From an archaeon (GTDB lineage Archaea; Asgardarchaeota; Thorarchaeia; Thorarchaeales; Thorarchaeaceae): a stretch of 32,000 nt of DNA. The position numbers and the translations under genes are program-made. Below the pieces are notes generated by a model. That model was not told the origin of the DNA. It saw only the letters and a program-made list of their open reading frames with translations, and ran no database searches. The DNA lies in NCBI GenBank assembly GCA_024275415.1, contig JAJRZD010000015.1:10058-42057 (forward strand). The letters are read 5' to 3'. This document shows, in pieces, positions 4,539 to 24,991 of this stretch; within the stretch, counting starts at the first letter, position 1, and each line of letters opens with the position of its first letter.

Positions 4539-4707
4539 TGAGCTACACCCTTTCCATTGTGGACGGGGTAACTACTGCAGTCCGTGTCGCTTCCCAAAGC
4601 AGTCCCAGAGAACCCGAGCTTGCTCATCTGCCGCAATAGCCGCCCCGTTGTTTTGTCTCTCACAACCTTCCCCAAAACAAGCCTAAATTATGGCGGGCTC
4701 GGCGGGA

Positions 4708-4737
4708 AATTCCACCTCCATGGGAGTCATGGGGGTA
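4708..4737 (-). other. tRNA-Lys T-loop intron (59/60), 30 nt
   Basis: TACCCCCATGACTCCCATGGAGGTGGAATT. It forms a 9-position stem with a 5-nt loop; the central helix TTCA/GGAA has one A.G mismatch; the T-stem is the outer helix. Confidence 0.85.
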
Positions 4738-4753
4738 TTTGAACCCGCGGCCC

Positions 4754-4788
4754 ATCCCCGTGCAAAGAGAGAGATGCTCTCTTGCTCT
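4754..4788 (-). other. tRNA-Lys intron at about 43/44 (42/43 also possible), 35 nt, relaxed BHB
   Basis: AGAGCAAGAGAGCATCTCTCTCTTTGCACGGGGAT. It has a long internal hairpin and an imperfect central helix ACCT/GGGG. Confidence 0.75.
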
Positions 4789-5349
4789 TCAGGTTAAAAG
4801 CCTGCTGCGCTACCTAGCTGCGCCACGAGCCCCTATTGCCATATGATTCCCGAGCAACGATGAGATGCACGTTGGCATATGACTACCATACAGCATTGCT
4901 AACGGTCATGCATGATCTGGGAAGCGGTTGTGCTGAGCACTCGAATCCACCTGTGTGAAAATAAAAGGTTTTCCTTGGAACGAAATTTAGAGTATCAACT
5001 AACTTGGAGATTTGCGGCCTATGAGCTTGTCCACATATTGTATTCTGAGGTAAAAAGGATTTTGCTGGCACGGGGAACGTGTCAGGTATAACGGGTAATG
5101 GAAGTTCCGGCTGAAAGAAGACGTGTGGAGGTCACAATAAGACAGACTGCGACCGGGTTTGTTTATGCCAAGATTGTCCTGCTGGCGTTTTTACTCAATG
5201 AGTCGGTCATGGGTCTCTTTTAATACATGTCACAATGTTTTTATTATGACCATCGAAAGTCGGCGAGGTTCTACTGGAATGACCGGGAGAGCCGTCTATT
5301 CTCTGGACCAGTTGTGCGATCCTGTCCGGAACAAGAGCGTGATAATAAC

Positions 5350-6003
5350 ATGTCATCAAGAAGTCGTCAAGCAGCGGCACGAACAAGGGACAAATGGAGA
5401 GAGAAAGTCTGGTATCAAATCAGGTCTCCGGAGTATTTTGGCGAGAAGGATATCGGGATGACCCCTGCTGGAAACCCCGAGTTATTGATCGGTCGCACTG
5501 TAAAACCCACGCTCTACGATTTGACAGGTAATTTCGACCAAATCCATGTGAAGCTGAGATTCAAAATCATCGAGGTTGTAGGTCAGGAGGCTAAGACCGT
5601 ATTTCACGGTCATGAATGGAGTTCAGATTATCTCAGAGGGCTAGTCAGGAGAGGTACTTCTCGTATCGACTGGATAGGCCCTATTCTTACAAAAGATGAC
5701 TACCTCATGCGGATCTCCGTAATCGTATTCACTACGTCACGGTCAAAGACCAGTCAGGAGCATTCAGTTAGGAAAGCTATCGAGAAGGTCATCAGGGCAC
5801 ATGCAAAGAAGCATGTCTTTGACGAGCTGGTCACTAAGGTCGTCCTTGGCGAGCTTGCTTCGGAAGTCCGTGAAGAGGTCAAGAAGATAGTACCGATCCG
5901 AGAATGTGAGATTCGAAAGAGCAAAGTGCTCAAAGGGCCCGAAGAGGTCAAGGCGCGCAGAGCAAGGCTTCGAAGGGGCACCGAGAAGAAGAAGTCGGGC
6001 TAG
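5350..6003 (+). CDS. rps3ae: 30S ribosomal protein eS1 (S3Ae)
   Basis: RDKWREKVWYQIRSPEYFGEKDIGMTPA, GRTVKPTLYDLTGNF, DYLRGLVRRGTSRID, KIVPIRECEIRKSKVL. Start moved to ATG 5350. Confidence 0.95.
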   Translation: MSSRSRQAAARTRDKWREKVWYQIRSPEYFGEKDIGMTPAGNPELLIGRTVKPTLYDLTGNFDQIHVKLRFKIIEVVGQEAKTVFHGHEWSSDYLRGLVRRGTSRIDWIGPILTKDDYLMRISVIVFTTSRSKTSQEHSVRKAIEKVIRAHAKKHVFDELVTKVVLGELASEVREEVKKIVPIRECEIRKSKVLKGPEEVKARRARLRRGTEKKKSG

Positions 6004-6079
6004 ACCTGTCCCTCAAGTCAGAGGGACAGATGTGTGCTCTCAGACGCAGACCATTCACAATCAGGCAATATTACCCAGT

Positions 6080-6433
6080 TCAGGCATTCATCCGTTTCAG
6101 CTTGTCAAGCGCCTGAAGAAGAAGCACCATCAGGTTGGCAAGTTTTGTGAGGGCCTCTGTATCGTTCTCTCGTTCTATGAGGACATTAAGCGTTCTTAGC
6201 TTGATGAGGAGTGTTTCTTTGAGTTCTGGGAGCAGTTCTTTCACAGTCCGTGTTTCGACTTCCTCATCAGAAGATGCATAGACAATCCTCCTGTCGCACA
6301 TCGCACAATAGATGTCATCACCCACCTTGAGGAGGGGTGTCCCGCACTTAGGACAACCATCTGCAAGCATTGTCGCACCCTGCTGTAACAACTGGGCCAT
6401 CCTCTTCACCGATGTGTCCTTTCTATCGTTCAT
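6080..6433 (-). CDS. UPF0148 / Sjogren autoantigen p27-like Zn-ribbon protein
   Basis: KRMAQLLQQGATMLADGCPKCGTPL...IYCAMC followed by a helical C-terminus. Start moved to ATG 6433. Confidence 0.85.
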   Translation of the reverse strand: MNDRKDTSVKRMAQLLQQGATMLADGCPKCGTPLLKVGDDIYCAMCDRRIVYASSDEEVETRTVKELLPELKETLLIKLRTLNVLIERENDTEALTKLANLMVLLLQALDKLKRMNA

Positions 6434-6595
6434 CGTGAATCCAGTGATGGATGTCCTCAATCCTTTATGAGAGTTGTTGGATGCTATGTACATCCATTCC
6501 TCTGCCGAAAGAATGATATGAGGATGTTATCCACCTCTCACTTGTTAGTTCGCACTGCATTTCGTGCGTCGAGACAATTTCAGAGGTGAGTCCCA

Positions 6596-6859
6596 ATGGA
6601 CCCCGAAGTACAGAGAAGCATAGACCAATCAAAGCACCTTTTGAGGCAAATCGCTGATGACTCGTCAGTGCCTCGAAACATAAGACGTGCAGCCAATGAA
6701 GCTATTGCGGTTCTTGAGAATGAGAGCGATTCACCTGCTGTCAGGGCTCAGAATGCGATTGCAATACTTGATGACCCTAGTCAGGATCCGAACTGTCCGA
6801 ACCATGCCCGAACTAAAATCTGGCATGTATCCAGTTTACTGGAACCAATTCGCGACTAG
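6596..6859 (+). CDS. UPF0147 family protein
   Basis: DSSVPRNIRRAA, SPAVRAQNAIAILDD, DPNCPNHARTKIW; 87 aa is typical for the family. Confidence 0.88.
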   Translation: MDPEVQRSIDQSKHLLRQIADDSSVPRNIRRAANEAIAVLENESDSPAVRAQNAIAILDDPSQDPNCPNHARTKIWHVSSLLEPIRD

Positions 6860-6942
6860 AGCTAGTGCGGACCAAGAACTGAGATTCGTACCTTCCTGTC
6901 AAAGAGAAGGTCTGTAGCTCATGTAGCACGGACGGAAAATGC

Positions 6943-8400
6943 GTGATTAAGGCTCGAATAAGAGGAATCTATTCACAATCATTGACGCGGATAATGCTGC
7001 AGAACCATTTTGAGATGGTTCAACCTACTCCTGAAGTGGCTAGAAGGTTTGGCCTCCCCTATCGAGCGGAAATCCCAGATGTTGATATCTGGGATAGAAG
7101 TGACCTACAGGGCATCGTGGCCATTGCTTACGAGTCAATCCTGAGAAAGCTCACCGATGTGCTTCGGAGAAGGCTTGGATGGGTGATAACCCGCACCCCA
7201 AGAGTCGCAAAGAGCTCAATCTACAAGGGAGTTGTGATAGGTAGGGATGATAAGACTGGATACACTCGCGTGAACATAGGGCCAATCATTGGGTTGCTAC
7301 CAGAGTTTTCTCCCGAAAGGGGAAGGTCTATCATGGTTCAAGTGAAAGCGCATGATTATGGTCGGAAAGCACCAGTACTCTCCTCTAACATCACGATTCC
7401 GGGAAAAGCCGCCGTACTTCTTCCAGATCCTGTCGTTCGGCTGAGCACCAAAATCAAGGGACAAAAAGAACGTGGGAGCCTCTTGGCGATAGGAAGGAAA
7501 CTGAGAGTTCATACAGAGCCATGGGGAATCCTCTGGAGGACAGCAGCAACTAGGCTCACTGATGAAGAACTCTACAATGAGATTGAGAACCTGTTGGACA
7601 CTGCACAAAAGATAGAGGATAGCTTCAATCAGATTGCAGAAACTGGTCTCCTGTTCGAGGGAACCAGCAATGCGGATATAGAGTTCCCAGCAGAGGTGAA
7701 AGAAGCACTGGATAAGACCCGTGCGAAGATACGACCGACCATCCAACATCATCATTTCTACAAGAGTGCTGGATATGCTTCGTTAGTGGATTTCGCAGAG
7801 ATGATGATTGAAGATAGGCCAAATGACCGTGAATATGTCAGGTCGAAGCTCGAAAAGGTGATTGGCAGGGATATGCCCAAAGTTGAAGATCCCATCAATA
7901 TAGTGCACACGAAACTAGACGGACGCTGCATAGTATTGTCGAAAGGAAGAGTTGTGGATAGCAATAACAATGCGTTTCTGATACGAAGACAGTTCAGGCA
8001 TACCACACGAAAGCTAAAGATGACTCCTGAAAGCGTTGACGGTGTAGTTGTTCCTAGAGATGAAGGCGACTATTCCATCACGAGGGTAGTTCCAGGGTCG
8101 ATGATCCTCATCACAGACTATTATTCACGAGAGAACAAACATAAGGGAACCTATGTGAATATCAACACTGGTGTAGAGGTATATCCAAGCAATGGTTCTG
8201 TCCCGAGCACTATACGGTATGTTGACCTTGAGATAGATGTTGTCGCACCAAAGAGAGGACAGACACGAATCATCGATCAGCATCTCCTGAAGCGTGCTGT
8301 ACAAAGGGGATTCATAACTGAGGAAATGGCAGACCTAGCACGGGCAAAGGCAAAGGCGGAGTATAGACGCTTGGTATCGAATGTGAAAAGTATTGCATGA
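6943..8400 (+). CDS. fau-1: FAU-1 RNA-binding protein/ribonuclease (RNase E/G-like N-terminal region plus DUF402)
   Basis: KARIRGIYSQSLT N-terminus, WGILWRTAA, IQHHHFYK, and C-terminal KGTYVNINTGVEVYP...YVDLEIDVV. Confidence 0.88.
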   Translation: MIKARIRGIYSQSLTRIMLQNHFEMVQPTPEVARRFGLPYRAEIPDVDIWDRSDLQGIVAIAYESILRKLTDVLRRRLGWVITRTPRVAKSSIYKGVVIGRDDKTGYTRVNIGPIIGLLPEFSPERGRSIMVQVKAHDYGRKAPVLSSNITIPGKAAVLLPDPVVRLSTKIKGQKERGSLLAIGRKLRVHTEPWGILWRTAATRLTDEELYNEIENLLDTAQKIEDSFNQIAETGLLFEGTSNADIEFPAEVKEALDKTRAKIRPTIQHHHFYKSAGYASLVDFAEMMIEDRPNDREYVRSKLEKVIGRDMPKVEDPINIVHTKLDGRCIVLSKGRVVDSNNNAFLIRRQFRHTTRKLKMTPESVDGVVVPRDEGDYSITRVVPGSMILITDYYSRENKHKGTYVNINTGVEVYPSNGSVPSTIRYVDLEIDVVAPKRGQTRIIDQHLLKRAVQRGFITEEMADLARAKAKAEYRRLVSNVKSIA

Positions 8401-8401
8401 G

Positions 8402-8650
8402 TCATTCTAACGATTCACATGTGCGAATTGCAAGATCAATCGCGCTCATGATGTCCTCTATCGTCGCACTGAAACTATTGATACCCCGATTGCACTTGAT
8501 ATAAATCCTAAGAGATTCATTAACTGTTTCAGAACATATCTCGATTCCTGTTGGGAGTGGCGAATTATCAGGGCTGATTGCTTGTAGGACGAGATTGGCA
8601 TCAGTAGATGATTTGAATTCTAGTTCGATGGTTGCTTGCAGAACGGTCAT
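8402..8650 (-). CDS. pcc1: KEOPS complex subunit Pcc1
   Basis: 82 aa with AISPDN and SFSATIEDIMSAIDLA; lies downstream of rps15 and the DHH gene, the conserved archaeal order. Confidence 0.85.
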   Translation of the reverse strand: MTVLQATIELEFKSSTDANLVLQAISPDNSPLPTGIEICSETVNESLRIYIKCNRGINSFSATIEDIMSAIDLAIRTCESLE

Positions 8651-9966
8651 GCCTCCTTGAGAAGTATTGTCAAAGCTTCTATTATGGTTTCATGGGTGTC
8701 AGCAGAAGTATCCGGTATCCTGACCGCTCTTGCTGAAACAGACGAGTGTTCGATAGCCCTATTGAAAAGTGCAGCTGACACGGAGAATAACGTGAGTGGT
8801 TTCTTCCATACCAAGGTGGTTGACCCTTCAGAAACCATTATGACGAACATGCACTCCTTAGTAATGTTAGAATCAAGAGCTATGCGTCCTACATCAGCAA
8901 GCGTGTGTTCTGAGAGGGCTCTTGTGTCTACAATGACATAAGTACTGGAGATATCTACGCTACCATCGTTCTCATCCAACAGAATATTCAACTTGGCGAC
9001 ATCTGAAATGGTTTCCTTGCAATGGCGTCGATATTCAGATATCATGTCTGAGAGAGATCGAGCACGATCTCCAATCAAGACGCTCAACAGAACTCCTGTG
9101 ATTTGTCTGCTCCATGCCATACGTGCGAGGGAAGATATACTTGAGAGATATCGCAGAGGGCTTGTCCGAGGTTCTAACAGGAATTCATAGTCATTGCCAA
9201 GGATATGTTCCACTACTGAAGGATGTAATGATGGTAAGAGCACTCCGTTAAGTTGGCGAGCTTCGTCGGATGCAAGCTCGCTGAGAGGGGATCTCCACTT
9301 GCTGAAACGTATGCCTGCGTCATCAAAAATCTTCTGGCAGGCTTCAGGATTACCACTGAGCGAGTCAAGATAGGGATAGATGTTATTTGTAAATACCTCA
9401 TCTAAAGTGAGAAAGTTGAAACCAGGAATCTTGAAGCCTTTTCGAGGGGCAAGCAGTCCTTCCTCGACCGAAGTTTGGATTATCTTAGAAGCTTCGTTTC
9501 CAGAGGCATCCTGAAGCAGTGAGCCGATTGCAGCAAGGGCCACTTCAGCAGCCTCAATGTCCATCGTTGCCAATCCAAATGCACAAGCCTCGACGGCAGC
9601 AGGGGATGAAACAGGTTCCTTTTTGATAGAGGTGGTCTTAGGATAGAACGTACCTCCAATCGGAAGAAAACAGTCGGGGTTGCTTGGTTTACCAATGACA
9701 TTAACGCCAACCGACAAAATCAGTGTTTCAGTGCCATCATAATAGTACTTCTCAGCTTGGGCGACAGGGATGATGGGGTTGCAAAAGGTCACATGAAAGA
9801 GAAACTTTGCTCGTAATGCCGCACGACAGAGTATTGATGTTGCTGTTACAGAGTGAGGTAGATAAGAACTGATAATCACGACCTTTTTGAAACTCTTCAG
9901 ATCAATATCTACGAATCTGCTCTTGAGCTGATTCCTAAGAGAATCAGGGAGGATGCTATCAGTCAT
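8647..9966 (-). CDS. RecJ/DHH-family GAN (Cdc45-related) orthologue with degenerate catalytic motifs
   Basis: Occupies the rps15-[DHH]-pcc1 position. Family-like segments: PYLDSLSGNPEACQKIFDDAGI..WR, ILGNDYEF, IGDRARS..EYRR. The HxDxDG, D(L/M)G and DHH motifs are replaced by SSYLPHS, SVG and IGG-like residues. Confidence 0.75.
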   Translation of the reverse strand: MTDSILPDSLRNQLKSRFVDIDLKSFKKVVIISSYLPHSVTATSILCRAALRAKFLFHVTFCNPIIPVAQAEKYYYDGTETLILSVGVNVIGKPSNPDCFLPIGGTFYPKTTSIKKEPVSSPAAVEACAFGLATMDIEAAEVALAAIGSLLQDASGNEASKIIQTSVEEGLLAPRKGFKIPGFNFLTLDEVFTNNIYPYLDSLSGNPEACQKIFDDAGIRFSKWRSPLSELASDEARQLNGVLLPSLHPSVVEHILGNDYEFLLEPRTSPLRYLSSISSLARMAWSRQITGVLLSVLIGDRARSLSDMISEYRRHCKETISDVAKLNILLDENDGSVDISSTYVIVDTRALSEHTLADVGRIALDSNITKECMFVIMVSEGSTTLVWKKPLTLFSVSAALFNRAIEHSSVSARAVRIPDTSADTHETIIEALTILLKEA

Positions 9967-10002
9967 CTCAAGGAGGACAAGACAGAGTGACCCATGATAA
10001 AA

Positions 10003-10461
10003 TTATCTAAGGAGCACCGCGGCCTTGTCAGGCGAGTATTTCCAGTCGGCAGGAAGAACCTGTTTCTTTCGATAATATTTTGAGAGCCTGTGAATCTTGC
10101 TCTCGACAAGCTGGAGTCCCCGTTTGGAAACAAAGTCTTTCTTTCCGTGTTCCTCAAGGTGGCGCCTAATCTTGAGTGCCTTTGCGATCATGTTCCGCAA
10201 ATCCTCAGGAACTCTGCGCTGAAGGTCATGTTCTTTGATAATCTGATTGATTCTTTTGCCGGTAATCACTTTCACAAGGGGGATTCCATACTGGTCACGA
10301 AGGATCAGCCCAATCATGCTTGGAGTGTTACCTGCCTTTGCAAGCTCTACAACTTTCTCTTCGATCCAAGCTGCATCCTTGTCCATCCATTCAGGGACTT
10401 GTAGTGTAGATGGGCGCTTGCTACTTGACTGACCTTTTCGTCGTGTGTGCATTCTTGCCAT
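10003..10461 (-). CDS. rps15: 30S ribosomal protein uS15 (archaeal S15 / eukaryotic S13)
   Basis: MARMHTRRKGQSSSKRP, PSMIGLILRDQYGIP, VPEDLRNMIAKA, GLQLVESKIHRLSKYY. Confidence 0.97.
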   Translation of the reverse strand: MARMHTRRKGQSSSKRPSTLQVPEWMDKDAAWIEEKVVELAKAGNTPSMIGLILRDQYGIPLVKVITGKRINQIIKEHDLQRRVPEDLRNMIAKALKIRRHLEEHGKKDFVSKRGLQLVESKIHRLSKYYRKKQVLPADWKYSPDKAAVLLR

Positions 10462-10581
10462 AGTGTTAACCTCTTGAGGGGAAGGTTTGACATAAACCGG
10501 CTATTCTCGATGGGCTTAGGACTGTGGATATAAACATTATCGTTTGTACGACATCGCCGGCAAAGGATTGACAAGCACATG

Positions 10582-11226
10582 TCAATGATACCGGCCTCGC
10601 TCACGAATCGCATCCATCCTTTCGAGAACAGGCTCAGCCTCTTTGCCCAACTCATCTACGTACCCTTCAATCGTTCGTGAGAGCATATTCTCTTGCATAT
10701 CCCAATGCGATGTTTCCAACGCCCGTTTGATGAGGTGCAAGTCCACCCCTTTCATCTCAACAGTGGCGTTCATTTCAGACAGACCAAAATCAATTATCCA
10801 TGTTTTTTCATTTGAAGTTATCAACAAATTGCTGGTAGTAGGATCTCCGTGAACCATCCCACCCCGATGGAGTTTGGCAATGATGCGACCAAAGCGATAA
10901 CACAAGTTCCCCAAGGTGGTCGAGCCCAGTGTTGAAGCGACCTGCTTCAGAGGTGTTCCGGGAATATAATCCATCAAGATGCTATAATCATTAAGGTCAA
11001 TAGCATGCACAGCGGGGGTGGGCACTCCAAGAGACCGCGCAACATTGAGACCCTTGCATTCGCGGCTAGTCCTACTTGCTCGAAGTGAACTGTCGATAGC
11101 AGGGATGAGATAGGGTTTACTGGGACGTGTCTTCAGGACAAATGACCGATCCCATAGCGCGACCTTTGTGATGATCGATTCTGCTCCAATGGCTATGTGT
11201 GCTCCCTCAAGTCTCATTCTTTCCAC
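10582..11226 (-). CDS. bud32: KEOPS kinase Bud32 (standalone, not fused to Kae1)
   Basis: GAESII, LKTRPSKPY, VHGDPTTSN, IIDFGLS, MKGVDLHL, IRERGRY. Confidence 0.93.
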   Translation of the reverse strand: MERMRLEGAHIAIGAESIITKVALWDRSFVLKTRPSKPYLIPAIDSSLRASRTSRECKGLNVARSLGVPTPAVHAIDLNDYSILMDYIPGTPLKQVASTLGSTTLGNLCYRFGRIIAKLHRGGMVHGDPTTSNLLITSNEKTWIIDFGLSEMNATVEMKGVDLHLIKRALETSHWDMQENMLSRTIEGYVDELGKEAEPVLERMDAIRERGRYH

Positions 11227-12200
11227 CCGATATCCTGTTCATCAGTCCTCCATTTCGGGAGGACTCCCGAAGATGAAATTTCAAGGGTATCGCCAACCCC
11301 ATATTGCAGAATCCCAGTCCATGCAATCATCGCGCCTTGATCCCCAGCCAGAGGAGGAGACACACGATGGAATCTTGCACCATGCCGGTCTGCCACACCT
11401 TGGAGTATCTCTGTGAGCCTGTTATTCCTTGCAACGCCACCTGTTAGGAGTACTTCATTCTTCTTTGTATGCGCAATCGCCCGTTCAGCAACCTCTGCCA
11501 GCATCCCAAAAGCTGTTTCTTGGATGCTATAGCAGATGTCATCCAGAGGCAGTCCTTCGTCAAAAAGACGACGCGCAGACGTGAGCATTCCCGAATAGCT
11601 TATGTCCATCCCTTTCACGGAATATGGAAGCGTATGATATGTAGAACCCATTTTTGCCAATTTCTCGACCTTTGGACCCGCTGGGAACCGCATCCCCACA
11701 TGTCTTCCAAAGACATCAAGCATATTCCCAATCGCAATATCAAGAGTTTCGCCAAAGGTACGGTATCTACCTCCTGCAAAGGCGATGACCTGAGAGTTCC
11801 CGCCCGATACATAGATGGTGACTGGGTCATTAAAACCAGACTCCAAGCTTCCAATCTCTATGTGTGCCACACAGTGATTGACACCAATCAATGGTACTCC
11901 CAGATGGAGGGACAATGATCGCGCCATGGTGGCAGTAGTGCGTAGGCACGGTCCAAGACCTGGGCCTTGTGAAAAAGCGATAATGTCAATTTGCTTAGGG
12001 GAAATGCCGGCATCATCGATAGACTGCCGTATCAGTAATGGACCAAGATACGCATGGTGCTGACTTGCCTCGCGCGGGTGTATTCCGCCCTCATCAGGTC
12101 GTAACATGTCCCATACATTCGATAACACCAGACCCTCACTAGAAACAATCCCTGCACCGAATGAATGAGCGGTTCCTTCCAGACCGAGGCAGATGGTCAT
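11214..12200 (-). CDS. kae1: tRNA N6-adenosine threonylcarbamoyltransferase Kae1
   Basis: LGLEGTAHSFGAG, GGIHPREASQHH, AFSQGPGLGPCL, VNHCVAHIEIG, YVSGGNSQV, DQGAMIAW, WRTDE. Start moved to ATG 12200 (12233 is possible). Confidence 0.96.
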   Translation of the reverse strand: MTICLGLEGTAHSFGAGIVSSEGLVLSNVWDMLRPDEGGIHPREASQHHAYLGPLLIRQSIDDAGISPKQIDIIAFSQGPGLGPCLRTTATMARSLSLHLGVPLIGVNHCVAHIEIGSLESGFNDPVTIYVSGGNSQVIAFAGGRYRTFGETLDIAIGNMLDVFGRHVGMRFPAGPKVEKLAKMGSTYHTLPYSVKGMDISYSGMLTSARRLFDEGLPLDDICYSIQETAFGMLAEVAERAIAHTKKNEVLLTGGVARNNRLTEILQGVADRHGARFHRVSPPLAGDQGAMIAWTGILQYGVGDTLEISSSGVLPKWRTDEQDIGWKE

Positions 12201-12307
12201 ACTGATATGCTCCTTGCACTTGTTGACCAGCATCTTCTTGACGCTGTCATGCTTTGTAGCAAAGCCTTTATAATCCACACTAAGGGGCACATCGAGAGGT
12301 AAAGGCA

Positions 12308-12553
12308 ATGTCACACGAAAAAATGCCCATCAAAGCACTCGAGCAGAACATCCACGAAATTGTATCAATCAAGCTCAAGGATCAACGGATTTTCAGAGGG
12401 CGCCTGTCCCGATGTGACGTCTATATGAACCTCACTCTGGAAGACGCTGAGGAACTCGTGCTTGGAGGGGATGAAACAACGACCATTGCCAAGTATGGCG
12501 AGATTCTTCTGAGAGGGAACAACATCCTCTGGATACAGATTCCCGAGGAATAG
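12308..12553 (+). CDS. Sm-like archaeal protein (SmAP/LSm)
   Basis: Sm1 motif VSIKLKDQRIFRGRLSRCDVYMNLTLEDAEE and Sm2 motif ILLRGNNI. Confidence 0.93.
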   Translation: MSHEKMPIKALEQNIHEIVSIKLKDQRIFRGRLSRCDVYMNLTLEDAEELVLGGDETTTIAKYGEILLRGNNILWIQIPEE

Positions 12554-12617
12554 ATGTGCTGCTTCGTTTCGATAGTGAGCAATAGGTGGCCAAAGCATCC
12601 AATTAGTCCCTTCGATG

Positions 12618-12644
12618 TTTTATAACGACAACTTTAATATAAAA
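12618..12644 (+). promoter_or_regulatory. Putative TATA elements for tRNA-Asp
   Basis: TTTTATAA (12618-12625) and TTTAATATAAAA (12633-12644), upstream of the tRNA at 12692. Confidence 0.5.
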
Positions 12645-12731
12645 CCGAGATTCGATGCAGATTACCTGATGTGCATCATCAGGACAACAGAGCCCCTGTA
12701 GTGTAGTCCGGCCTAGCATTCAAGACTGTCA

Positions 12732-12761
12732 ATCCAATGCGATTGGCATCTTGGAGCGGAC
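12732..12761 (+). other. tRNA-Asp anticodon-loop intron (37/38), 30 nt
   Basis: ATCCAATGCGATTGGCATCTTGGAGCGGAC. Central helix CTGT/GCGG, 3-nt bulges, inner stem TCCAA/TTGGA. Confidence 0.9.
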
Positions 12762-12782: not shown

Positions 12783-12812
12783 TGTGTCCATGATTCCCAT
12801 GAACATTGGAAA
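12783..12812 (+). other. tRNA-Asp T-loop intron (59/60), 30 nt
   Basis: TGTGTCCATGATTCCCATGAACATTGGAAA. Central helix TTCA/TGGA, two 3-nt bulges, 9-position stem with an ATTCC loop. Confidence 0.9.
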
Positions 12813-16814: not shown

Positions 16815-17076
16815 CGATACTCAATTTCACTTTCCAGTACTTTAACTGCGATGTTACACGAGTATTATCACTCGGAAAGCGCCAATCCCCGTAGGGACAC
16901 TCGAACATCCTAACACTTATCGAAAAGGAGTGCTAGTATCACCGATTGAAACGGCATACCACTTCCTCTCGACTGTTTTGGTGGGCCCGAACCATCACTA
17001 TCTGACAAGTCTATAATCTCGTTGTTCAAAAGCAAGTTGGTCGGGACGGCCGGATTTGAACCGGCAACCGATGGAT

Positions 17077-17107
17077 AGCTGTGAACGCCATCCGAACTGG
17101 CAGCTCT
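17077..17107 (-). other. tRNA-Tyr anticodon-loop intron (37/38), 31 nt
   Basis: AGAGCTGCCAGTTCGGATGGCGTTCACAGCT. Perfect central helix CTGT/ACAG. Confidence 0.9.
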
Positions 17108-17122
17108 CTACAGTCCATTGCT

Positions 17123-17151
17123 TATGGCCCGATACTCGGAAGAGTATCGGA
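17123..17151 (-). other. tRNA-Tyr D-arm intron (22/23), 29 nt
   Basis: TCCGATACTCTTCCGAGTATCGGGCCATA. Perfect 9-bp stem CCGATACTC/GAGTATCGG, TTCC loop, central helix TGGC/GCCA. Confidence 0.88.
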
Positions 17152-17332
17152 CTGCCAGATTGAGCTACGTCCCGGGTGAGCAAACCGCAGTATTGTTTTG
17201 CCTATAAGGATTACTCCGTGGCATTTGCTATCTAGATGTGGCGGGTCTGGACATGTTAATTGAAGAGGCAGTAGATAATACGTACCACACAGGTTTTAAC
17301 TGGTTCGCGGTGGCCATCTCAATGAGTTTGCA

Positions 17333-17551
17333 ATGTCCGAAAGAATATGCAATACCAAAAGGAACCTCGAACGATGTGGTTGTTCATATCCGGGATGCTC
17401 TCGCAAGGGCTATTGTTGTGACTGTCTGGACTACCACTGGAAGCATCGGGAACTCCCAGGGTGCCTTTTCCCAAAAGAGGCTGAGAGAACATACAATAGG
17501 TCACTCGAGTATTTCCTAGAGGTCTGGACAGAAAAGCTTGGAAAGAGCTAG
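17333..17551 (+). CDS. Small Cys-rich protein, DUF6485-like
   Basis: CGCSYPGCSRKGYCCDCLDYHWKHRELPGCLFPKEAERTYNRS. Confidence 0.75.
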   Translation: MSERICNTKRNLERCGCSYPGCSRKGYCCDCLDYHWKHRELPGCLFPKEAERTYNRSLEYFLEVWTEKLGKS

Positions 17552-17559
17552 AAATCTGA

Positions 17560-17637
17560 TGGCGGGCCCGCCAGGATTTGAACCTGGGACATCCAACTTC
17601 GAAGGCTGGCGCCCTATCCAGACTAGACTACGGGCCC
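17560..17637 (-). tRNA. tRNA-Arg(UCG), no intron
   Basis: GGGCCCG TA GTCT AGTCTGGATA GGGC G CCAGC CTTCGAA GTTGG ATGTC CCAGG TTCAAAT CCTGG CGGGCCC G CCA. Confidence 0.96.
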
Positions 17638-17830
17638 CGATACTCCAATTTTGGATTTCCCTTTAAGCTCTTCTGTATCATCATGATTAAGGATCAGAGG
17701 TACGATCAGTAGACTGGGGACATGAAGCTTAAAGGTGAAAGTAGGTCGAGGTATTATATCGACAAAGGAACACTCCTCATTGCAATCTGTTGTTGCTGTT
17801 CTGTCCGCCCTTAAATATACGCCAAAGTTT

Positions 17831-17928
17831 TGGCGGGCCCGGTGAGATTCGAACTCACGAAAACCAACTTTCTCCGAATGTATTGATTATAGGAGGCTGG
17901 TGCCCTATCCTGGCTAGGCAACGGGCCC
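17831..17928 (-). tRNA. tRNA-Arg(CCU) with a canonical 37/38 intron (20 nt, 17870-17889)
   Basis: GGGCCCG TT GCCT AGCCAGGATA GGGC A CCAGC CTCCTA [TAATCAATACATTCGGAGAA] A GTTGG TTTTC GTGAG TTCGAAT CTCAC CGGGCCC G CCA. Central helix CTCC/GGAG. Confidence 0.94.
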
Positions 17929-17973: not shown

Positions 17974-19239
17974 TCATTGAGCGACTCTTGCAGTAATGGA
18001 GGCTCCTTCTTCCATGGCATCTACGATCATGCTGCCTTGGCGGGTCTTGATACGGATAGAGCTCTCACCGTTCCGTCCGACCATGATAGTGGTCAGGTAC
18101 ATATCATCGGCGAAAATCTCAAGGCGTTGCTTGGCATATTTTCGTCCCGCGTGGATCGTGACCTTCTTCTTGGAGTAGCTGATTGAAACCTTGACTGTTT
18201 CACCGGGTCTGGCACGACGTGCCACCTGTTCTCTTGAAGTGGTGCGGGGGCCTCCTCTAACTGGGACAACGACCTTCTCGCCTCCGAAAGTGAACATCTC
18301 GTATTCTAACACACCAAGCTCGAAGTCACGAACCTCCACTACCGGTCGCGCGAGGTCTCGTTGGGAGCTGCTCATCCCGGTGGGCATCTTCACCTTCAAT
18401 GAGAGAGATGACACCTTCGCCACTCGCCCTGCTTCAATATGGATGACTGTATCCACAGTGCTTGGAAGTTGACCAAGTTCTACCCGGCCCCCAAGGGTAA
18501 GACGCTGAATTGCATCGATTGATGAACCTGCATGGACAACTCCCACCATTCCAACTCCGGCAGATCGCAGGTCAGCATAGGCTGAGAAATCACTTGATTT
18601 CCGCAATTCGTCGTATATCACGTAGTCAGGTCGGACAAGAAGAAGGATATCGGCTGCTTTCTCCATGCTCTTGTCAAGAGGAGAGTATTGTACGATGTCA
18701 TCCGACACTTGAAGGTCACGCGGTTGTTCGAGAGTCTTTACTACGTTACCCTTCTTGCTGTAGAATTCGGCAAGCGCAGCAGAAAAAGTCGACTTGCCAG
18801 AGCCAGGACTGCCAGTAACGAGAATTCCTTCGGCACGTGTTTCCAATCGCTTCATCAACTTCGGGCTGAGGTCATAATCGCCAATTGCAAGCTTCTTGAT
18901 TGGCCTGATTGCAGAGATTTCGTATTTGTCAGCGAAAGGAGGCATAGCGATGGCTATCCGCAGATTTCTTAACTGGACGACGGCAGCACCTTCCTCCTCA
19001 ATCTCGATGAATGACTGACGGTCGTTCCGAGCGGTTTCGATAATTGCCTCAGCTAAGATATCGAGTTCCTCATGAGTAAGGATTCTGTCAGATAGCTCCA
19101 CCAATGACCAATCACCAGGAGCACCGCGTTTTGCACGGGGAGGGTTGTTCTCAATCAAGTGCACACTCATGGTGTGTTCGTCAAAGAAAGCGTCCAGCTT
19201 TAGGAGCTCCTCATCATCATCAATCCAGTCATCATTCAT
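17974..19239 (-). CDS. PINA-type (PINc/VapC-family) P-loop ATPase lacking the N-terminal PIN domain
   Basis: FFDEHTMSVHL, AKRGAPGDW, RIAIAMPPF, Walker A GSPGSGKST, TLEQPRDLQV, LLLVRPDYVIYDE, GMVGVVHA. The probable start is ATG 19239, overlapping the endonuclease stop; the track's longer N-terminus lies inside the endonuclease gene. Confidence 0.85.
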   Translation of the reverse strand: MNDDWIDDDEELLKLDAFFDEHTMSVHLIENNPPRAKRGAPGDWSLVELSDRILTHEELDILAEAIIETARNDRQSFIEIEEEGAAVVQLRNLRIAIAMPPFADKYEISAIRPIKKLAIGDYDLSPKLMKRLETRAEGILVTGSPGSGKSTFSAALAEFYSKKGNVVKTLEQPRDLQVSDDIVQYSPLDKSMEKAADILLLVRPDYVIYDELRKSSDFSAYADLRSAGVGMVGVVHAGSSIDAIQRLTLGGRVELGQLPSTVDTVIHIEAGRVAKVSSLSLKVKMPTGMSSSQRDLARPVVEVRDFELGVLEYEMFTFGGEKVVVPVRGGPRTTSREQVARRARPGETVKVSISYSKKKVTIHAGRKYAKQRLEIFADDMYLTTIMVGRNGESSIRIKTRQGSMIVDAMEEGASITARVAQ

Positions 19240-19873
19240 CGTTCGTGTTCTCTCCAATCTTGCGAAGTTTCGTCTGAGCGACCTTGTAGTAGTTGACCTC
19301 CCCATTCTGATCAACAAGCGCGAACAACAGGTTCTTTCGAGCAGCAACCGCTGCGTCAGTAACCATGTTCAGGTCGTGCAGCGATATGGGATTTCCTTCC
19401 TTCATGACGTAGATTAGTTGTTTTGCTGTAGCCACGCCAGGCTTATCACCACGAGCATAGACCCTGAACCCGATTCCGCCACCGAATCCTTGACGGACAG
19501 CATATCCCCTGCTACGCAGATCTCGGAAGACCAAATACTTCACCCAAAGATTCGGGTCTTCAGGCAACAGCGTCTTTACAATGTAGGGTGCACCGATTCT
19601 TGTACCATCAGGAAGAGAGAGAGTAATGCGCTTCCTTTCGAGAAGGTGCAAAATCTCGATGGGTTCGAGTTCTAATCGTCCATCATCAAGACGGGCACCA
19701 TAGAAGCCTTGTTGTGATATCCTGTCAGCATCGCTTCGGTTCACATACCCTTTCAGATTTTCGAATATCATCTCTGAAGGTTCTTCCTCAGTTTCATCGG
19801 CATCCTCTTCTTTTTGTTCTGCCAAACCGGGTGTCATTTGAGGATTGCTTTCGTCGGGATCGGACAAATTCAT
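19232..19873 (-). CDS. endA: tRNA splicing endonuclease subunit, probably the structural (non-catalytic, beta) subunit
   Basis: LELEPIEILHLLE, YLVFRDLRSRGY, FRVYARG, ARKNLLFALVDQNGEVNYY. No His at or near the catalytic His position. Confidence 0.88.
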   Translation of the reverse strand: MNLSDPDESNPQMTPGLAEQKEEDADETEEEPSEMIFENLKGYVNRSDADRISQQGFYGARLDDGRLELEPIEILHLLERKRITLSLPDGTRIGAPYIVKTLLPEDPNLWVKYLVFRDLRSRGYAVRQGFGGGIGFRVYARGDKPGVATAKQLIYVMKEGNPISLHDLNMVTDAAVAARKNLLFALVDQNGEVNYYKVAQTKLRKIGENTNDE

Positions 19874-20479: not shown

Positions 20480-21509
20480 GACAATCGAGTGGATGGATGA
20501 TGCCAACAATGTTCGTCTTGTGGATCAGACGAAACTGCCATTGAAAACTGAGCACCTGATTATCTCAAGTCATAAGAGAATGGCTCAGGCTATCAAGACT
20601 ATGGAGATTCGAGGCGCTCCTGCAATTGGTGCTGCAGCTGGGATGGGGATGGCACTAGCCGCATTAGAAAGCGGAGCTAGTACTAAGAATGAATTACTAG
20701 AGTTTCTTGAGCATGCAGCAGACACCTTAAACACTAGACCCACGGCTGTGAACCTTACGTGGGCAACCACAAGGATGCTCAATGTTGCTAGGGCTGCTGA
20801 GGGGGATCCAAACAAAATAGTGCAACTCCTGATTTCAGAAGCAAAAGAGATTGCAGAAGAGGATGTTCGCATGTGCAGGGACATCGGCGAGAATGCTCTG
20901 AGGTACATCAAGCCGGATTTCACAATTCAGACTATATGTAACGCTGGCTCACTAGCAACTGTCCATCTTGGTACAGTAGGTGCTGTGGTAAGGGTGGCAC
21001 ATGAAAGATATAGTGGGCGTATTAGGGTCTACGCAGCTGAAACACGTCCTCGACAGCAAGGGGCGAAATTGACTGTCTTCGAGATGATGGAGGACAACAT
21101 TGATACAACGCTGATAACGGATGGAATGATTGGAACTGTCTTCAAAGAGGGGAGGGTCGATTGCTGTGTGGTAGGAGCTGATAGGATATTGCGAACAGGA
21201 CATGTCACTAATAAGATTGGAACCTATACGATGGCGATCACAGCAAAATACCATGACATCCCATTCTATGTTGCAGCGCCCATGTCTACGATTGATTGGG
21301 ATACAGACCCAGAAAATCTCGTAATAGAAGAGAGAAACCCTGATGAGATTCGGGTCATCAACGGCACTCCTATCACAGTCCCGACTGCTAAGGTCTACAA
21401 TCCGGCTTTTGATACTACTCCACCCGAGCTTGTGACAGCGATTATAACTGACAAGGGAGTTGTTGAGCTTCCAGACGAGGATAAGATGCGTGGGTTGCGT
21501 GACTGTTAG
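20472..21509 (+). CDS. mtnA: S-methyl-5-thioribose-1-phosphate isomerase (eIF-2B alpha/beta/delta family)
   Basis: LVDQTKLP, MEIRGAPAIG, TRPTAVNL, CNAGSLAT, ETRPRQQGAKLT, VGADRI, NKIGTY, YNPAFDTTP. Start moved to ATG 20472. Confidence 0.88.
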   Translation: MFRTIEWMDDANNVRLVDQTKLPLKTEHLIISSHKRMAQAIKTMEIRGAPAIGAAAGMGMALAALESGASTKNELLEFLEHAADTLNTRPTAVNLTWATTRMLNVARAAEGDPNKIVQLLISEAKEIAEEDVRMCRDIGENALRYIKPDFTIQTICNAGSLATVHLGTVGAVVRVAHERYSGRIRVYAAETRPRQQGAKLTVFEMMEDNIDTTLITDGMIGTVFKEGRVDCCVVGADRILRTGHVTNKIGTYTMAITAKYHDIPFYVAAPMSTIDWDTDPENLVIEERNPDEIRVINGTPITVPTAKVYNPAFDTTPPELVTAIITDKGVVELPDEDKMRGLRDC

Positions 21510-21643
21510 ACGGGATTAATGACATTCCAGCTTGCGCTTGTGTGAGACGTGAGTGTGTATTGAAGCACTATGAAGCCATGAACGGCTCCAAGTCAATGTT
21601 TATCTGCGTCACATCATAATTGAAAGACGAGAGGAATCATACT

Positions 21644-22234
21644 ATGCCTAGTTGTGAACTGTGTGGCAGAAATATGAAGAGCAAAGGACGAAAGGTCACA
21701 ATTGAAGGGGCTGAGATGATTGTTTGCCCCCAATGTGCAGCAAAATTTGGAGGCCGATCATCCGACACATTCAGCAAGCCACAGTATGATAAGCCAAGCA
21801 AACCTTCATGGACAAGCACACCAAGTTCTAAGCCATCGAAGGTCGCTCCCTTACGGGTGCCGGCCAAACCAGCACCTCTAAAGAAAACAAGACCACCAAG
21901 GACGAGGTCAGCGCCCCTCATCGACGACATGGTTTTGATTGAGGGTTATGCTGAGGTCATTCGGAAAGCCCGACAAAAGAAGAGATTGAGTCAAGACGAG
22001 CTTGCTCAAAAGGTCGGTGAACGGATCTCAACGTTGCAGTCTATCGAGGCTGGGAGGCTTAAGCCAACCAGAAAGACGATACGGGGATTAGAGCGTGAAC
22101 TAGATATCTCATTGCTAGAACCAATAAGCCCGGTTCCCTTAGTGACTATGCGTGATAGGAGCGCTCCAGGGCCAACACTTGGTGATATCGTCAAGGTAAA
22201 GAAAAAGAAATCTCAGAAAGGTGGTCATGAATAG
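21644..22234 (+). CDS. mbf1: Archaeal multiprotein bridging factor aMBF1 (Zn ribbon plus HTH)
   Basis: CELCG...IEGAEMIVCPQCAAKFG, IRKARQKKRLSQDELA, IEAGRLKP, PTLGDIVKVK. Confidence 0.92.
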   Translation: MPSCELCGRNMKSKGRKVTIEGAEMIVCPQCAAKFGGRSSDTFSKPQYDKPSKPSWTSTPSSKPSKVAPLRVPAKPAPLKKTRPPRTRSAPLIDDMVLIEGYAEVIRKARQKKRLSQDELAQKVGERISTLQSIEAGRLKPTRKTIRGLERELDISLLEPISPVPLVTMRDRSAPGPTLGDIVKVKKKKSQKGGHE

Positions 22235-22379
22235 AAAACTGGGATAAGACTGTGCAACAGGTCAGCTTAAATACTATATGAGTATATATTATTATTAGCA
22301 CATATCTCTCGGCTTTGGTCTTTTCATGATCAGCGGATGCATTCGAATATCCACATAACATTCAGGTGAAAACATAACA

Positions 22380-22907
22380 ATGGCACATTCGAACTTCAAC
22401 AACGAATTATTTCGCTTAGTGGTCGAGGAGATAGCAGGAAAAGAAGGTGTTGACGTAGCAACGGTTCTTGTCAATGCAGACGAAACTACTGATGAAGAAA
22501 TCGCTACCAAAACCGACCTCAAATTGAATGTCGTGCGTCGTATTCTGTACAAGCTGCATGATAACCATTTAGCATCATATCGTAGGATAAGGGACACAAA
22601 CACGGGCTGGTTCTTATACTATTGGAAAATAGATCCGAAGAAAGCACAAGCACTTGTGAACCGCAAGAAGAAAATGGTGCTTAACTTACTTGAGCAACGT
22701 TTGGAGCACGAAAGTAACAATGACCTCTATGCCTGTGTAAATAGGGATTCCTCACCCGTTCCTTTTGAAGAGGCAATGAATCTATCGTTCAGATGCCCAA
22801 ATTGTAATGGTGCTCTTGAGTATGTAGACAACAAGAAGCAAGTAATCTTCCTCAAGAAGCGAGTTGAGGAGCTGAAAGCAGACTTGAGGGCAACATCATT
22901 GAGTTGA
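22380..22907 (+). CDS. tfe: Transcription factor E (TFIIE alpha)
   Basis: TDEEIA, LNVVRRILYKL, YRRIRDTNTGWFLYYW, FEEAMNLSFRCPNCNG. Confidence 0.95.
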   Translation: MAHSNFNNELFRLVVEEIAGKEGVDVATVLVNADETTDEEIATKTDLKLNVVRRILYKLHDNHLASYRRIRDTNTGWFLYYWKIDPKKAQALVNRKKKMVLNLLEQRLEHESNNDLYACVNRDSSPVPFEEAMNLSFRCPNCNGALEYVDNKKQVIFLKKRVEELKADLRATSLS

Positions 22908-22969
22908 TAGGGTGTGTCAGAGGACAAATTGACGGGTATTCACGACCTCAGCATGAAGGAGTTCTCCTG

Positions 22970-23743
22970 TTGAAGAAGATTATCCTAATGACAAAGGTAT
23001 ATGGACAATATCGTAATCGTTTGTTGTCAATCATCCAATCTGAGATCGAATCCATGGTAAGCGAGCTGGATATCACCTCGCTTATCATCAATGTGAATAA
23101 AAAGGAACATATTATCGTGTCTGTCAAGGGATCAGATTCTGAGTTTGTGATCAATTTGTTGGCGCAAGAATATGGAAAAGCCCCTGAGCCTCATGAAGTG
23201 CTACCTCAAACCAAAATTCCTAGCCAATTGCTTGATACTGGAAAGGTGGGATTCGGTTTTTTCGCAGACATTGGTCTGTCAGATCCAGATATCGATCCTC
23301 TACTTCCACTTTACAGAATACGAGAGCAATTAGATATGGAAGGGATGCCCCTACGGAAAATAGCCAAGAATCTAGTTTTTGTCGACTACCTCCCAGTCGA
23401 CATCCAGATAGTGGATGTGGATTATGGATCTGAACAAATTGGGGCTGAATTCGCTCAAACCTTCTTGGACAGATTCACCAGCTGGGTTACCGATGATCAT
23501 GAACGACTTCTCATATTTGGCGCCAATCGACGTATGATTGAGAATGCATTGGAGAAAACTCGTCATGAAGAGGATATCTATACAATCGAGCGTCTAGGTA
23601 AATTCGAATACTCGTTGAGATGCAAACGAAGTACGCGTGCATCAGGCATCCTAGCGGCTATTGGGCCCCGCCTAAGAGGGGTTCCGATGCACCTGTTCAT
23701 CCCTAATGAAATACAGGCGGCGAAAAGTGATGCCAAGGCTTGA
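22970..23743 (+). CDS. DUF2110 family protein
   Basis: KVYG, GKVGFGFFADIG, LLPLYR, VDYLPVDI, IERLGKFE, GILAAIGP. It follows tfe, as commonly seen in archaea. The TTG start is preceded by GAAGGAG. Confidence 0.8.
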   Translation: MKKIILMTKVYGQYRNRLLSIIQSEIESMVSELDITSLIINVNKKEHIIVSVKGSDSEFVINLLAQEYGKAPEPHEVLPQTKIPSQLLDTGKVGFGFFADIGLSDPDIDPLLPLYRIREQLDMEGMPLRKIAKNLVFVDYLPVDIQIVDVDYGSEQIGAEFAQTFLDRFTSWVTDDHERLLIFGANRRMIENALEKTRHEEDIYTIERLGKFEYSLRCKRSTRASGILAAIGPRLRGVPMHLFIPNEIQAAKSDAKA

Positions 23744-24428
23744 TGTCTGGCTTGTGAAAGAAGGACATTTTTCATCTAGACAGATTGCGCAGAGAGCGAT
23801 AAAGGAAGGGTATGTCACAGTGAACGGAATTGTGGTGAAAGCCTCAAAGAACGTTGATGGCTCTGAATGCATTACTATTTCGGAGAAGGCGATAAATATC
23901 CCCTTTGGGTATAGAAAGCTTGAGAAGATAGATCAATTACTCGGGGGTGTCCTCGTAGAATCAGGATTCAAGGCTGTAGACATCGGAACATCAGCAGGGG
24001 GGTTTCTACAGTATCTGATAGAGAAAGGAGTGATGGTGACGGGAATTGAGGTTTCTGACGAGTTCATACCACATTTGTCAAAAATACTTGCAGATAGCAA
24101 TAATGCCGTATTGGTCATTGCAGATGCATTTCGAATCGACCCTCAGATGATATCTGAAAGGCAGGGACTTGACTTGCTATTGATTGATGTCACAACTGAG
24201 CTGGAGGGAACTTTAAATCTGATTAGACGTTTCACGGAACGGCTAAAGGAGAGGGGGACACTCATCTGTGCATTCAAGACACGGCTTACTGATGATATTA
24301 GGGGCGTAATAGAGAGAACATTAGAGAAGAGCTTTGATATTCTTCATTTTGTCGAGCTCGAGCAGTTCAGGAAAGAATTCCATCTGGTTGCCAAAAGACA
24401 CATACTACATCTTCAAATTGATTCATGA
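23730..24428 (+). CDS. TlyA-like S4-domain RNA 2'-O-methyltransferase (FtsJ fold)
   Basis: MPRLDVWLV...SRQIAQRAIKEGYVTVNG (S4 domain), KL, VDIGTSAGGF, LIDV. Confidence 0.8.
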   Translation: MPRLDVWLVKEGHFSSRQIAQRAIKEGYVTVNGIVVKASKNVDGSECITISEKAINIPFGYRKLEKIDQLLGGVLVESGFKAVDIGTSAGGFLQYLIEKGVMVTGIEVSDEFIPHLSKILADSNNAVLVIADAFRIDPQMISERQGLDLLLIDVTTELEGTLNLIRRFTERLKERGTLICAFKTRLTDDIRGVIERTLEKSFDILHFVELEQFRKEFHLVAKRHILHLQIDS

Positions 24429-24508
24429 ACTCTTGAGTGAACTATGGAATGTGGACAGTGCTTGATTAGCTAGAGAGCTGTTGCATAGGTGTGCGACAGC
24501 CCATCACC

Positions 24509-24750
24509 GTTGATTGAAAGTTGGACAAACCTGGACATCAGGCAGTCCGTCCAGCAACGGCACTGGACGTGGTGTCTTGCACGTGGATGATGTTCCGTGC
24601 CGCGTTCACGTCGGCATGGGAGTGCTCGTCACAATCCAGGTCTGTCAAGGATTCTTGCAACTGTGGCTCACCCGACAACCTGCTCACACAAACCACATCA
24701 TGACTGATTACAGTTCTGGGACTTCTCAAGATAGCAGCTCCGTACAATTT
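24509..24750 (-). mobile_element. tnpB: Decayed 3' end of an IS200/IS605-family tnpB (non-autonomous remnant)
   Basis: LDCDEHSHADVNAARNI (HADVNAARNI at 24589-24618) is the TnpB Zn-finger/RuvC-III signature. The upstream Zn finger is frameshifted and no RuvC-I/II is visible. A 3' hairpin lies at 24548-24569. Element boundaries are approximate. Confidence 0.7.
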
Positions 24751-24883
24751 TTAAGAGCAAATATGCAGCAGGCTGACCTCACAGTTAAAGTATACGCGCA
24801 GGCGATATGAGGTTATTCTTCAGGCTTTGTGCATTCTGCTATGACGTTACGTTTTTAATTGACTTGGCGATAGGTGCTAAGTA

Positions 24884-24991
24884 GGGCCGCTAGTCTAGCC
24901 CGGCTATGATGCCTCGCTTACACCGAGGAAGCCTTGAAGGTTTTCTTCGGGGTCTCGACGGTCGCTGGTTCAAATCCGGCGCGGCCCACCA
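24884..24991 (+). tRNA. tRNA-Val(UAC) with a non-canonical variable-region intron 44/45 (30 nt, 24930-24959)
   Basis: GGGCCGC TA GTCT AGCCCGGCTA TGAT G CCTCG CTTACAC CGAGG A [AGCCTTGAAGGTTTTCTTCGGGGTCTCGAC] GGTC GCTGG TTCAAAT CCGGC GCGGCCC A CCA. Confidence 0.92.

Follow-up and report, generated by a model that had tools for sequence, protein, structure and literature searches.

Why should introns that interrupt unrelated transfer RNA (tRNA) genes at unrelated positions have almost the same length? The question is raised by a 32,000-nucleotide (nt) stretch of a Thorarchaeaceae genome (the whole stretch analysed, C117:10058-42057, is hereafter the window), which belongs to an assembly of 3.5 Mb in 127 contigs that is 92.9% complete. 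The window holds seven tRNA genes, five of which carry eight introns, with lengths of 29, 30, 30, 30, 30, 31, 35 and 20 nt. For introns of the bulge-helix-bulge (BHB) type, only the splice motif is usually held to matter, length and internal sequence being regarded as unconstrained. In this genome the typical intron follows a single design of 30 nt, built around a hairpin with a stem of nine positions, and this module is a property of the family rather than a general feature of BHB introns.

The tRNA genes of the window and their introns are as follows, with positions counted from the first letter of the window.

4691..4832, reverse strand: tRNA-Lys(UUU) gene, 142 nt, two introns, CCA end encoded; 77 nt when spliced, with 20-21/21 stem pairs
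4754..4788, reverse strand: Lys intron 1, 35 nt, at 42/43-43/44 (1-nt boundary ambiguity), relaxed BHB
4708..4737, reverse strand: Lys intron 2, 30 nt, T-loop position 59/60, layout 1+9+5(ACTCC)+9+4+2, with 3/4 pairs in the central helix and 3/3 in the outer helices
12692..12829, forward strand: tRNA-Asp(GUC) gene, 138 nt, two introns; 78 nt when spliced, with 21/21 pairs
12732..12761, forward strand: Asp intron 1, 30 nt, canonical position 37/38, BHB score 10/10
12783..12812, forward strand: Asp intron 2, 30 nt, T-loop position 59/60, loop ATTCC, BHB score 10/10
17038..17174, reverse strand: tRNA-Tyr(GUA) gene, 137 nt, two introns
17123..17151, reverse strand: Tyr intron 1, 29 nt, position 22/23, 9-bp stem, loop TTCC
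17077..17107, reverse strand: Tyr intron 2, 31 nt, canonical position 37/38, BHB score 10/10
17560..17637, reverse strand: tRNA-Arg(UCG), intron-free
17831..17928, reverse strand: tRNA-Arg(CCU) gene, 98 nt, one intron
17870..17889, reverse strand: Arg(CCU) intron, 20 nt, canonical position 37/38, without a hairpin and among the few short exceptions
24884..24991, forward strand: tRNA-Val(UAC) gene, 108 nt, one intron
24930..24959, forward strand: Val intron, 30 nt, variable-loop position 44/45, 9-bp stem, loop GTTTT
25091..25178, forward strand: tRNA-Leu(UAA), class II, intron-free

Rfam and ARAGORN together gave six tRNA-like loci in the window. The seventh, tRNA-Asp(GUC), is detected by neither tool and was obtained by BHB-guided splicing and rescanning. 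Genes and introns were then parsed with a solver that scores the canonical cloverleaf together with the BHB frame, charges a penalty for each intron and lets the BHB score break ties between boundaries. Its output fully matched the inventory given in a preliminary description of this DNA (number, positions and lengths), and it reproduced the layout proposed there of 1 nt, nine stem positions, a loop, nine stem positions, 4 nt and 2 nt, together with the loops TTCC, ACTCC and ATTCC.

The genome-wide tRNA set was assembled from Rfam and ARAGORN seeds, acceptor-stem and CCA anchors, the solver, and manual parsing of the most fragmented genes. It comprises 47 genes: all 46 standard archaeal anticodons, each recovered exactly once, and tRNA-Sec. 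Such a complete and non-redundant anticodon set provides an internal check on the intron calls. Introns number 50 and lie in 34/47 genes (1.06 per gene), with 32/50 at non-canonical positions. Their median length is 30 nt with an interquartile range of 30-32, and 41/50 measure 28-32 nt. In full, the counts are one intron each of 18, 20 and 27 nt, four of 28, four of 29, 20 of 30, six of 31, seven of 32, one of 33, two of 35, and one each of 38, 59 and 61 nt. All 32 non-canonical introns fall within 27-35 nt, and the five far outliers (18, 20, 38, 59 and 61 nt) are all canonical 37/38 introns. The clustering at 29-31 nt seen in the window is thus no sampling effect, the outcome that would have undone the preliminary description.

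Other search strategies served less well. A strict genome-wide BHB search followed by ARAGORN gave only 11 loci and was replaced by the solver, while boundaries could not be set from ARAGORN scores alone, since stretches of intron were read as part of a long variable arm. Two broad scans by anchor and by anticodon returned huge and mostly useless lists, from which Asn(GUU) and Trp(CCA) were obtained. A search among the genome's contigs for related loci with GatE found nothing.

The most fragmented genes carry three or four introns each. The gene for tRNA-Trp(CCA), at C82:8872-9097 (+), has four introns, so that a 226-nt gene encodes a 77-nt tRNA. Its canonical intron, at 37/38, has 59 nt, and no clear C/D boxes were seen in it; the other three, in the D-loop, in the variable loop and at 59/60, measure ~30, ~30 and 31 nt. 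Three introns of ~30 nt each are found in both tRNA-Lys(CUU), at C10:33964-34129 (+), and tRNA-Asn(GUU), at C10:60091-60252 (+), the latter being the sole tRNA seen without an encoded CCA end. Three tRNA-Leu isoacceptors share an intron of 28-31 nt at a common site in the variable arm (coordinates run along the strand given):

C123 51619-51736, reverse strand: tRNA-Leu(GAG)
C127 5195-5310, reverse strand: tRNA-Leu(CAG)
C82 4969-5086, forward strand: tRNA-Leu(UAG)

The Leu variable-arm introns have a weak BHB and the least certain boundaries of all, and in the family genome G029 both Leu(GAG) and Leu(CAG) are intron-free.

The internal architecture is regular too. In the BHB frame, two 3-nt bulges, each cut after its second nucleotide, enclose a central 4-bp helix in which exon bases pair with the 3' tail of the intron. 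This helix has at least 3/4 pairs in 48/50 introns (29 at 4/4 and 19 at 3/4), where chance would give ~15%; the two relaxed cases are the Leu(GAG) variable arm and Thr(UGU) at 12/13. The exon helix h has at least 2/3 pairs in most introns and is weak (0-1/3) in ~9, chiefly in the D-loop and variable arm. Removal of the introns restores the cloverleaf, with U8, U33, the T-loop and 20-21/21 stem pairs; in the window the spliced products are cloverleaves of 77-78 nt, and CCA is encoded in all seven genes. Judged by these sequence features, the segments in window and genome are genuine archaeal BHB (hBHBh') pre-tRNA introns, which would be excised from the transcript.

Inside this frame, a typical intron consists of 1 nt, a 23-nt hairpin (9+5+9), 4 nt and 2 nt. 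Among the 45 introns of 27-35 nt, pairing in the h' stem is 62-96% at positions 1-9 and falls to 33%, the chance level, at position 10. Each of positions 1-9 draws on five or six of the six pair types, and when the partner is taken 1-2 nt out of register the pairing rate is that of chance. This pattern, together with the varied pair types, indicates that the length of the helix is defined and its sequence is not. The loop is less free: UUC occurs in 16/45 loops against 3.4 expected, a count reached in 0/2000 shuffles, and A[ACU]U[CU]C (AUUYC-type) occurs in 10/45 against 0.75 expected. Introns begin with A or U in 37/45 cases, and in 35/45 the next-to-last base is A.

A plain physical cause might account for such a stem. 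Under this explanation a ~9-bp hairpin would be a thermodynamic minimum, the smallest stable nucleus for a BHB that competes, at non-canonical sites, with the native tRNA fold in a mesophile, and deletion bias would trim longer introns with no factor measuring their length. It is consistent with the only hairpin-less introns (18 and 20 nt) lying at 37/38, where the anticodon stem supports the BHB, and with all long outliers (38, 59 and 61 nt) being canonical. However, stem pairing drops sharply to chance at position 10 and 20/50 introns measure exactly 30 nt, a tightness greater than a one-sided limit and deletion drift would give, and the sharp upper edge is left unexplained. The loop sequence is also non-random, and a genome from the same order (G007, below) has non-canonical introns of 14-24 nt. 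We consider this explanation very unlikely.

The same module recurs among relatives. The closest named homologues of a splicing endonuclease (EndA) subunit encoded in the window come from 'Candidatus Thorarchaeota archaeon', at 62-71% identity, which supports the taxonomy. The tRNA-Asp gene was located in 41 genomes that represent 16 genera of the family, and 25 of the fetched loci were solved, the window's own included. Its canonical 37/38 intron is nearly always present in the family, at 28-34 nt (mostly 29-31) and with diverged stems; one solved tRNA-Asp is intron-free. The second intron lies at 59/60, 53/54, 43/44 or in the D-loop depending on genus, and every one of these measures 29-31 nt; position 12/13 would be a fifth, less secure site. 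At 59/60, where the window has it, the intron is missing or located elsewhere in most family genomes. Introns of tRNA-Lys(UUU) in the family lie at 42/43-43/44, 59/60, 53/54 or 37/38 and are all 27-35 nt, with orthologues of Lys intron 1 (29-33 nt) in 10 genomes; nine genomes, one of them from the same genus, have this gene intron-free. MAFFT and RNAalifold found no consensus structure for the orthologous Asp introns, because the stems cannot be aligned by sequence, and counting within the BHB frame was used instead.

Outside the family the size rule is lost. With one script applied to Rfam-detected tRNAs only, outgroup G007 (same order, other family) has a median of 17 nt (range 14-29, n=16) and outgroup G008 (same phylum) a median of 22 nt (range 12-48, n=25). 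Introns of 28-32 nt make up 8/41 in these two outgroup Asgard genomes against 41/50 here (one script; Fisher p = 1.7e-9, which is descriptive only, since genomes are not independent samples). For archaea in general, median intron lengths of 12-25 nt per isodecoder (same anticodon) tRNA have been reported (PMC4090602).

These comparisons also bear on whether the 30-nt peak could be a detection artefact produced by the BHB-guided solver or by misplaced boundaries. The BHB score does break boundary ties, and D-loop and variable-arm boundaries are uncertain. However, total intron length equals gene span minus canonical mature length and is independent of BHB scoring, insert sizes are alike in independent Rfam alignments, and the anticodon set was recovered in full. 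The same code returns 12-48 nt in the outgroups, whose medians of 17 and 22 nt indicate that the method does not impose 30 nt. An artefact is scarcely credible.

What, then, holds the size constant? We lean, with confidence only slightly better than even, towards a lineage-specific constraint in which stabilising selection on hairpin geometry, rather than recent copying, would keep the introns uniform. Three features argue for selection on geometry: the length persists although the sequences turn over heavily, stem pairing stops abruptly beyond position 9, and a single size is common to introns that are placed differently in different genera. In the proposed scheme, pre-tRNA introns would be cut by a two-subunit (alpha-beta)2 EndA and the exons joined by RtcB. 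The module would begin with the third bulge nucleotide, mostly A or U, and continue with the hairpin of nine stem positions and a loop of ~5 nt, often with UUC. Four nucleotides predicted to pair with the last exon bases before the cut would then form the central helix, and two bulge nucleotides, mostly A-rich, would complete a total of 30 +/- 2 nt. New introns would arise at ~30 nt and keep this size while their sequence turns over. The length might be set by a factor that recognises the loop at a constant spacing from the cleavage sites, or by what folding demands where introns lie at non-canonical positions.

The genome encodes the expected machinery, including two EndA paralogues of what is probably a broad-specificity type. 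One lies in the window, ~1.3 kb from the tRNA cluster at 17038-17928:

19232..19873, reverse strand: second (structural, beta-like) EndA subunit, 213 amino acids, with matches to PF01974 and PF02778

Aligned with Methanocaldococcus jannaschii EndA, this protein keeps the catalytic Tyr and Lys and has another residue at the catalytic His position; having both EndA domains and no catalytic His, it is read as the structural subunit. The alpha subunit, on contig C69, most resembles the catalytic subunit in the Aeropyrum pernix heterotetramer (3p1z_B) and keeps the Tyr/His/Lys triad, and RtcB is found on contig C127 (582 bits). The (alpha-beta)2 type of EndA has already been reported in Asgard archaea, including Thorarchaeota (PMC5829648). 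An extra EndA domain serving as a ruler was considered and rejected on the basis of similar subunit sizes across Asgard genomes, sizes being all that was compared.

The introns themselves give no support for recent copying or mobility. Among 45 introns, five pairs reach an identity of at least 0.70, where structure-preserving shuffles give 3.8; the maximum is 0.73 against 0.72 in shuffles, and at thresholds of 0.60, 0.65 and 0.70 the number of pairs stays inside the shuffled range or very nearly so. BLAST of the introns against the genome gave no non-self match above shuffled controls. Outside tRNA genes, hairpins of nine base pairs within a BHB occur ~250 times for each length between 28 and 55 nt, as expected by chance, and strict matches add none. 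Hairpins with AUUYC loops are genome-wide at most ~2-fold more frequent than the mean of all 5-nt loops. A repeat of the repetitive extragenic palindrome (REP) or miniature inverted-repeat transposable element (MITE) type was rejected on these flat hairpin counts and the AUUYC ratio, and recent transposition of the Thermoproteales type is unsupported, given the lack of similar-sequence clusters and of genomic donors. A recent preprint likewise reports no copying signal in other Asgard lineages (bioRxiv 10.64898/2026.10.13.758758), in agreement with the result here.

One insert outside the tRNA genes does resemble the module. In rpoA2, at ~C117:7984-8013 (-) and thus ~2 kb before the start of the window, a 30-nt segment with two in-frame stops splits the conserved motif MTLRTFHYAGV, and its removal restores that motif. 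The insert reads A + ATCACGTAC + ATTTC + GTACGTGAT + GTGA + AA, and its layout of 1+9+5+9+4+2 is that of the tRNA intron module, with a loop of like type. The 16S gene of the assembly is a partial copy at a contig end.

This insert and the non-random loops fit well with descent from one self-propagating founder, a lineage of 30-nt BHB hairpins whose size would be inherited and not selected. Such a lineage could have spread at the DNA level, or by a route in which the excised circle is reverse-spliced, reverse-transcribed and recombined, and would have reached new sites in tRNA, rRNA and mRNA genes. Introns at differing sites across genera that all measure 29-31 nt are what it predicts, as are the excesses of UUC and AUUYC loops (16/45 and 10/45), the A-rich bulge nucleotides and the 1+9+ATTTC+9+4+2 module with in-frame stops in rpoA2. 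On direct reading, 13/14 central bases are also alike in the Asp and Lys 59/60 introns. The negative results of the preceding searches oppose it: intron-pair identity no higher than in structure-preserving shuffles, no non-self genomic match above shuffled controls, no excess of 30-nt BHB hairpins outside tRNA genes, and no copying signal in other Asgard lineages (10.64898/2026.10.13.758758). In addition, the 4-nt tails are specific to each insertion site, and orthologues that have diverged to near-randomness still keep their length, for which inheritance alone is insufficient. We regard a propagating founder as a serious rival, though as less likely than not. Selection and an older common origin are compatible, and both can hold.

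A more specific version envisages a self-propagating Thorarchaeota mini-intron of 30 nt that would form a dumbbell circle and insert by reverse splicing, served by a dedicated loop-reading factor. In the circle, a 9-bp stem would be capped on one side by an AUUYC-type loop and on the other by a joined 7-nt bulge remnant. The factor would recognise the loop by its constant spacing from the cut sites, and insertion could take place into any RNA with a 4-nt match beside a helix. Reverse splicing into any such RNA would explain one module in different RNA classes; as a whole this version seems unlikely.

The preliminary description had offered two readings, a length ruler and a common ancestral mobile mini-intron. 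The ruler fits better, in that length and the 9-position hairpin are kept across tRNAs, sites and 16 genera while the sequences turn over, and in that Asp and Lys introns placed independently of one another all measure ~30 nt. The mobile mini-intron loses its recent mobility, given shuffle-level identity and the lack of donors, and may survive as an older common origin.

Several points weigh against the reading based on selected geometry. That the 50 segments are spliced is something we infer from sequence, and boundaries in the D-loop and variable arm carry an uncertainty of 1-3 nt. The UUC/AUUYC loops and the rpoA2 module are explained just as well by descent from a single propagating element. 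The hairpin is absent from two canonical introns, of 18 and 20 nt, implying an endonuclease without a strict need for the 9-bp stem, at least at 37/38. Five Asgard genomes with long or short introns each have two EndA paralogues of similar subunit sizes, so that domain make-up is no explanation of the size rule, and no ruler component is evident from EndA subunit make-up or sizes in these five. Finally, the distant family genus G029 is looser, with a median of 29 nt and 6/11 introns at 28-32 nt (7/11 at 27-33), in a sample that, like those of G007 and G008, comprises Rfam-detected tRNAs only.

How does the module compare with known systems? In the preliminary description, multi-intron tRNAs were held to be best documented in Thermoproteales and DPANN lineages, a view since overtaken, as the most intron-rich case now recorded is that of Asgard archaea (PMC11291895; bioRxiv 10.64898/2026.10.13.758758). 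The heavily interrupted Asgard tRNA sets described there resemble the present one in that most genes are interrupted, often at non-canonical positions or several times, with gains and losses between relatives, an (alpha-beta)2 EndA, many introns missed by standard tools and no sign of copying between tRNA genes. They differ in density and size, with ~2.2 intervening sequences per gene and a median of 22-23 nt (90 genomes), whereas the values here are 1.06 and a mode of 30. The preprint's main text makes no mention of Thorarchaeota by name. While intron-rich Asgard tRNA genes are already known, we found no account of the fixed 30-nt module or of its constancy across a family: a fixed 9-position hairpin is seen here, and a family-specific fixed size is described in neither PMC11291895 nor 10.64898/2026.10.13.758758.

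Thermoproteales offer another close parallel. They share hBHBh' or relaxed motifs at 22/23, 43-45, 53/54 and 59/60 and multiple introns per gene, and have a heterotetrameric EndA of broad specificity, the EndA here also being of two subunits. However, their introns are mostly shorter and form near-identical families across tRNAs, taken as transposition, whereas no such similarity was found here. Transposed intron families of this type were reportedly described by Fujishima in 2010. The same splicing motif occurs in other RNAs, including the cbf5 pre-mRNA intron and short hairpin introns of Crenarchaeota 16S rRNA; those cases are isolated and of varied size, while here one 30-nt module is found in tRNA genes and rpoA2. 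A fixed distance matters for the eukaryotic TSEN ruler too, although it runs from the tRNA body to the cuts and applies at 37/38 only, unlike the constant here, which is the intron's own hairpin length at many sites. To our knowledge, no such tRNA-splicing ruler is known in archaea.

A single 30-nt design, kept in many genes and genera of a whole archaeal family and at over a dozen sites, points to an additional lineage-specific requirement or birth mechanism. How Asgard tRNA introns arrived is stated as an open question (10.64898/2026.10.13.758758), and the fixed unit size thereby offers a concrete, testable clue to it.

The introns also have practical consequences for annotation. By default ARAGORN finds 2/7 tRNAs in the window; in intron mode it overlooks Lys and Asp and assigns Tyr and Arg(CCU) to the wrong type. 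Rfam at its gathering threshold finds 4/7 in the window and 30/47 in the genome, and ARAGORN without intron mode recovers from the whole genome only the ~13 intron-free tRNA genes. The earlier expectation that standard pipelines would miss these tRNAs therefore holds for ARAGORN and Rfam, and tRNA-based completeness estimates and codon-usage inferences for such metagenome-assembled genomes are biased. A search tuned to the module would recover the missed genes and could flag like introns in rRNA and protein-coding genes.

Two further observations concern the tRNA genes themselves. A candidate tRNA-Sec(UCA) on contig C69 (-), given by ARAGORN as c[8832,8922], suggests the use of selenocysteine. 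In many family genomes (G017, G039 and G016, for example) tRNA-Lys(UUU) and tRNA-Asp are divergent neighbours ~0.4-0.5 kb apart. In the window they are separated by 7.9 kb (4833-12691) that hold an RNase E/G-like + DUF402 gene and Kae1, suggesting that DNA was inserted or rearranged between the two tRNAs.

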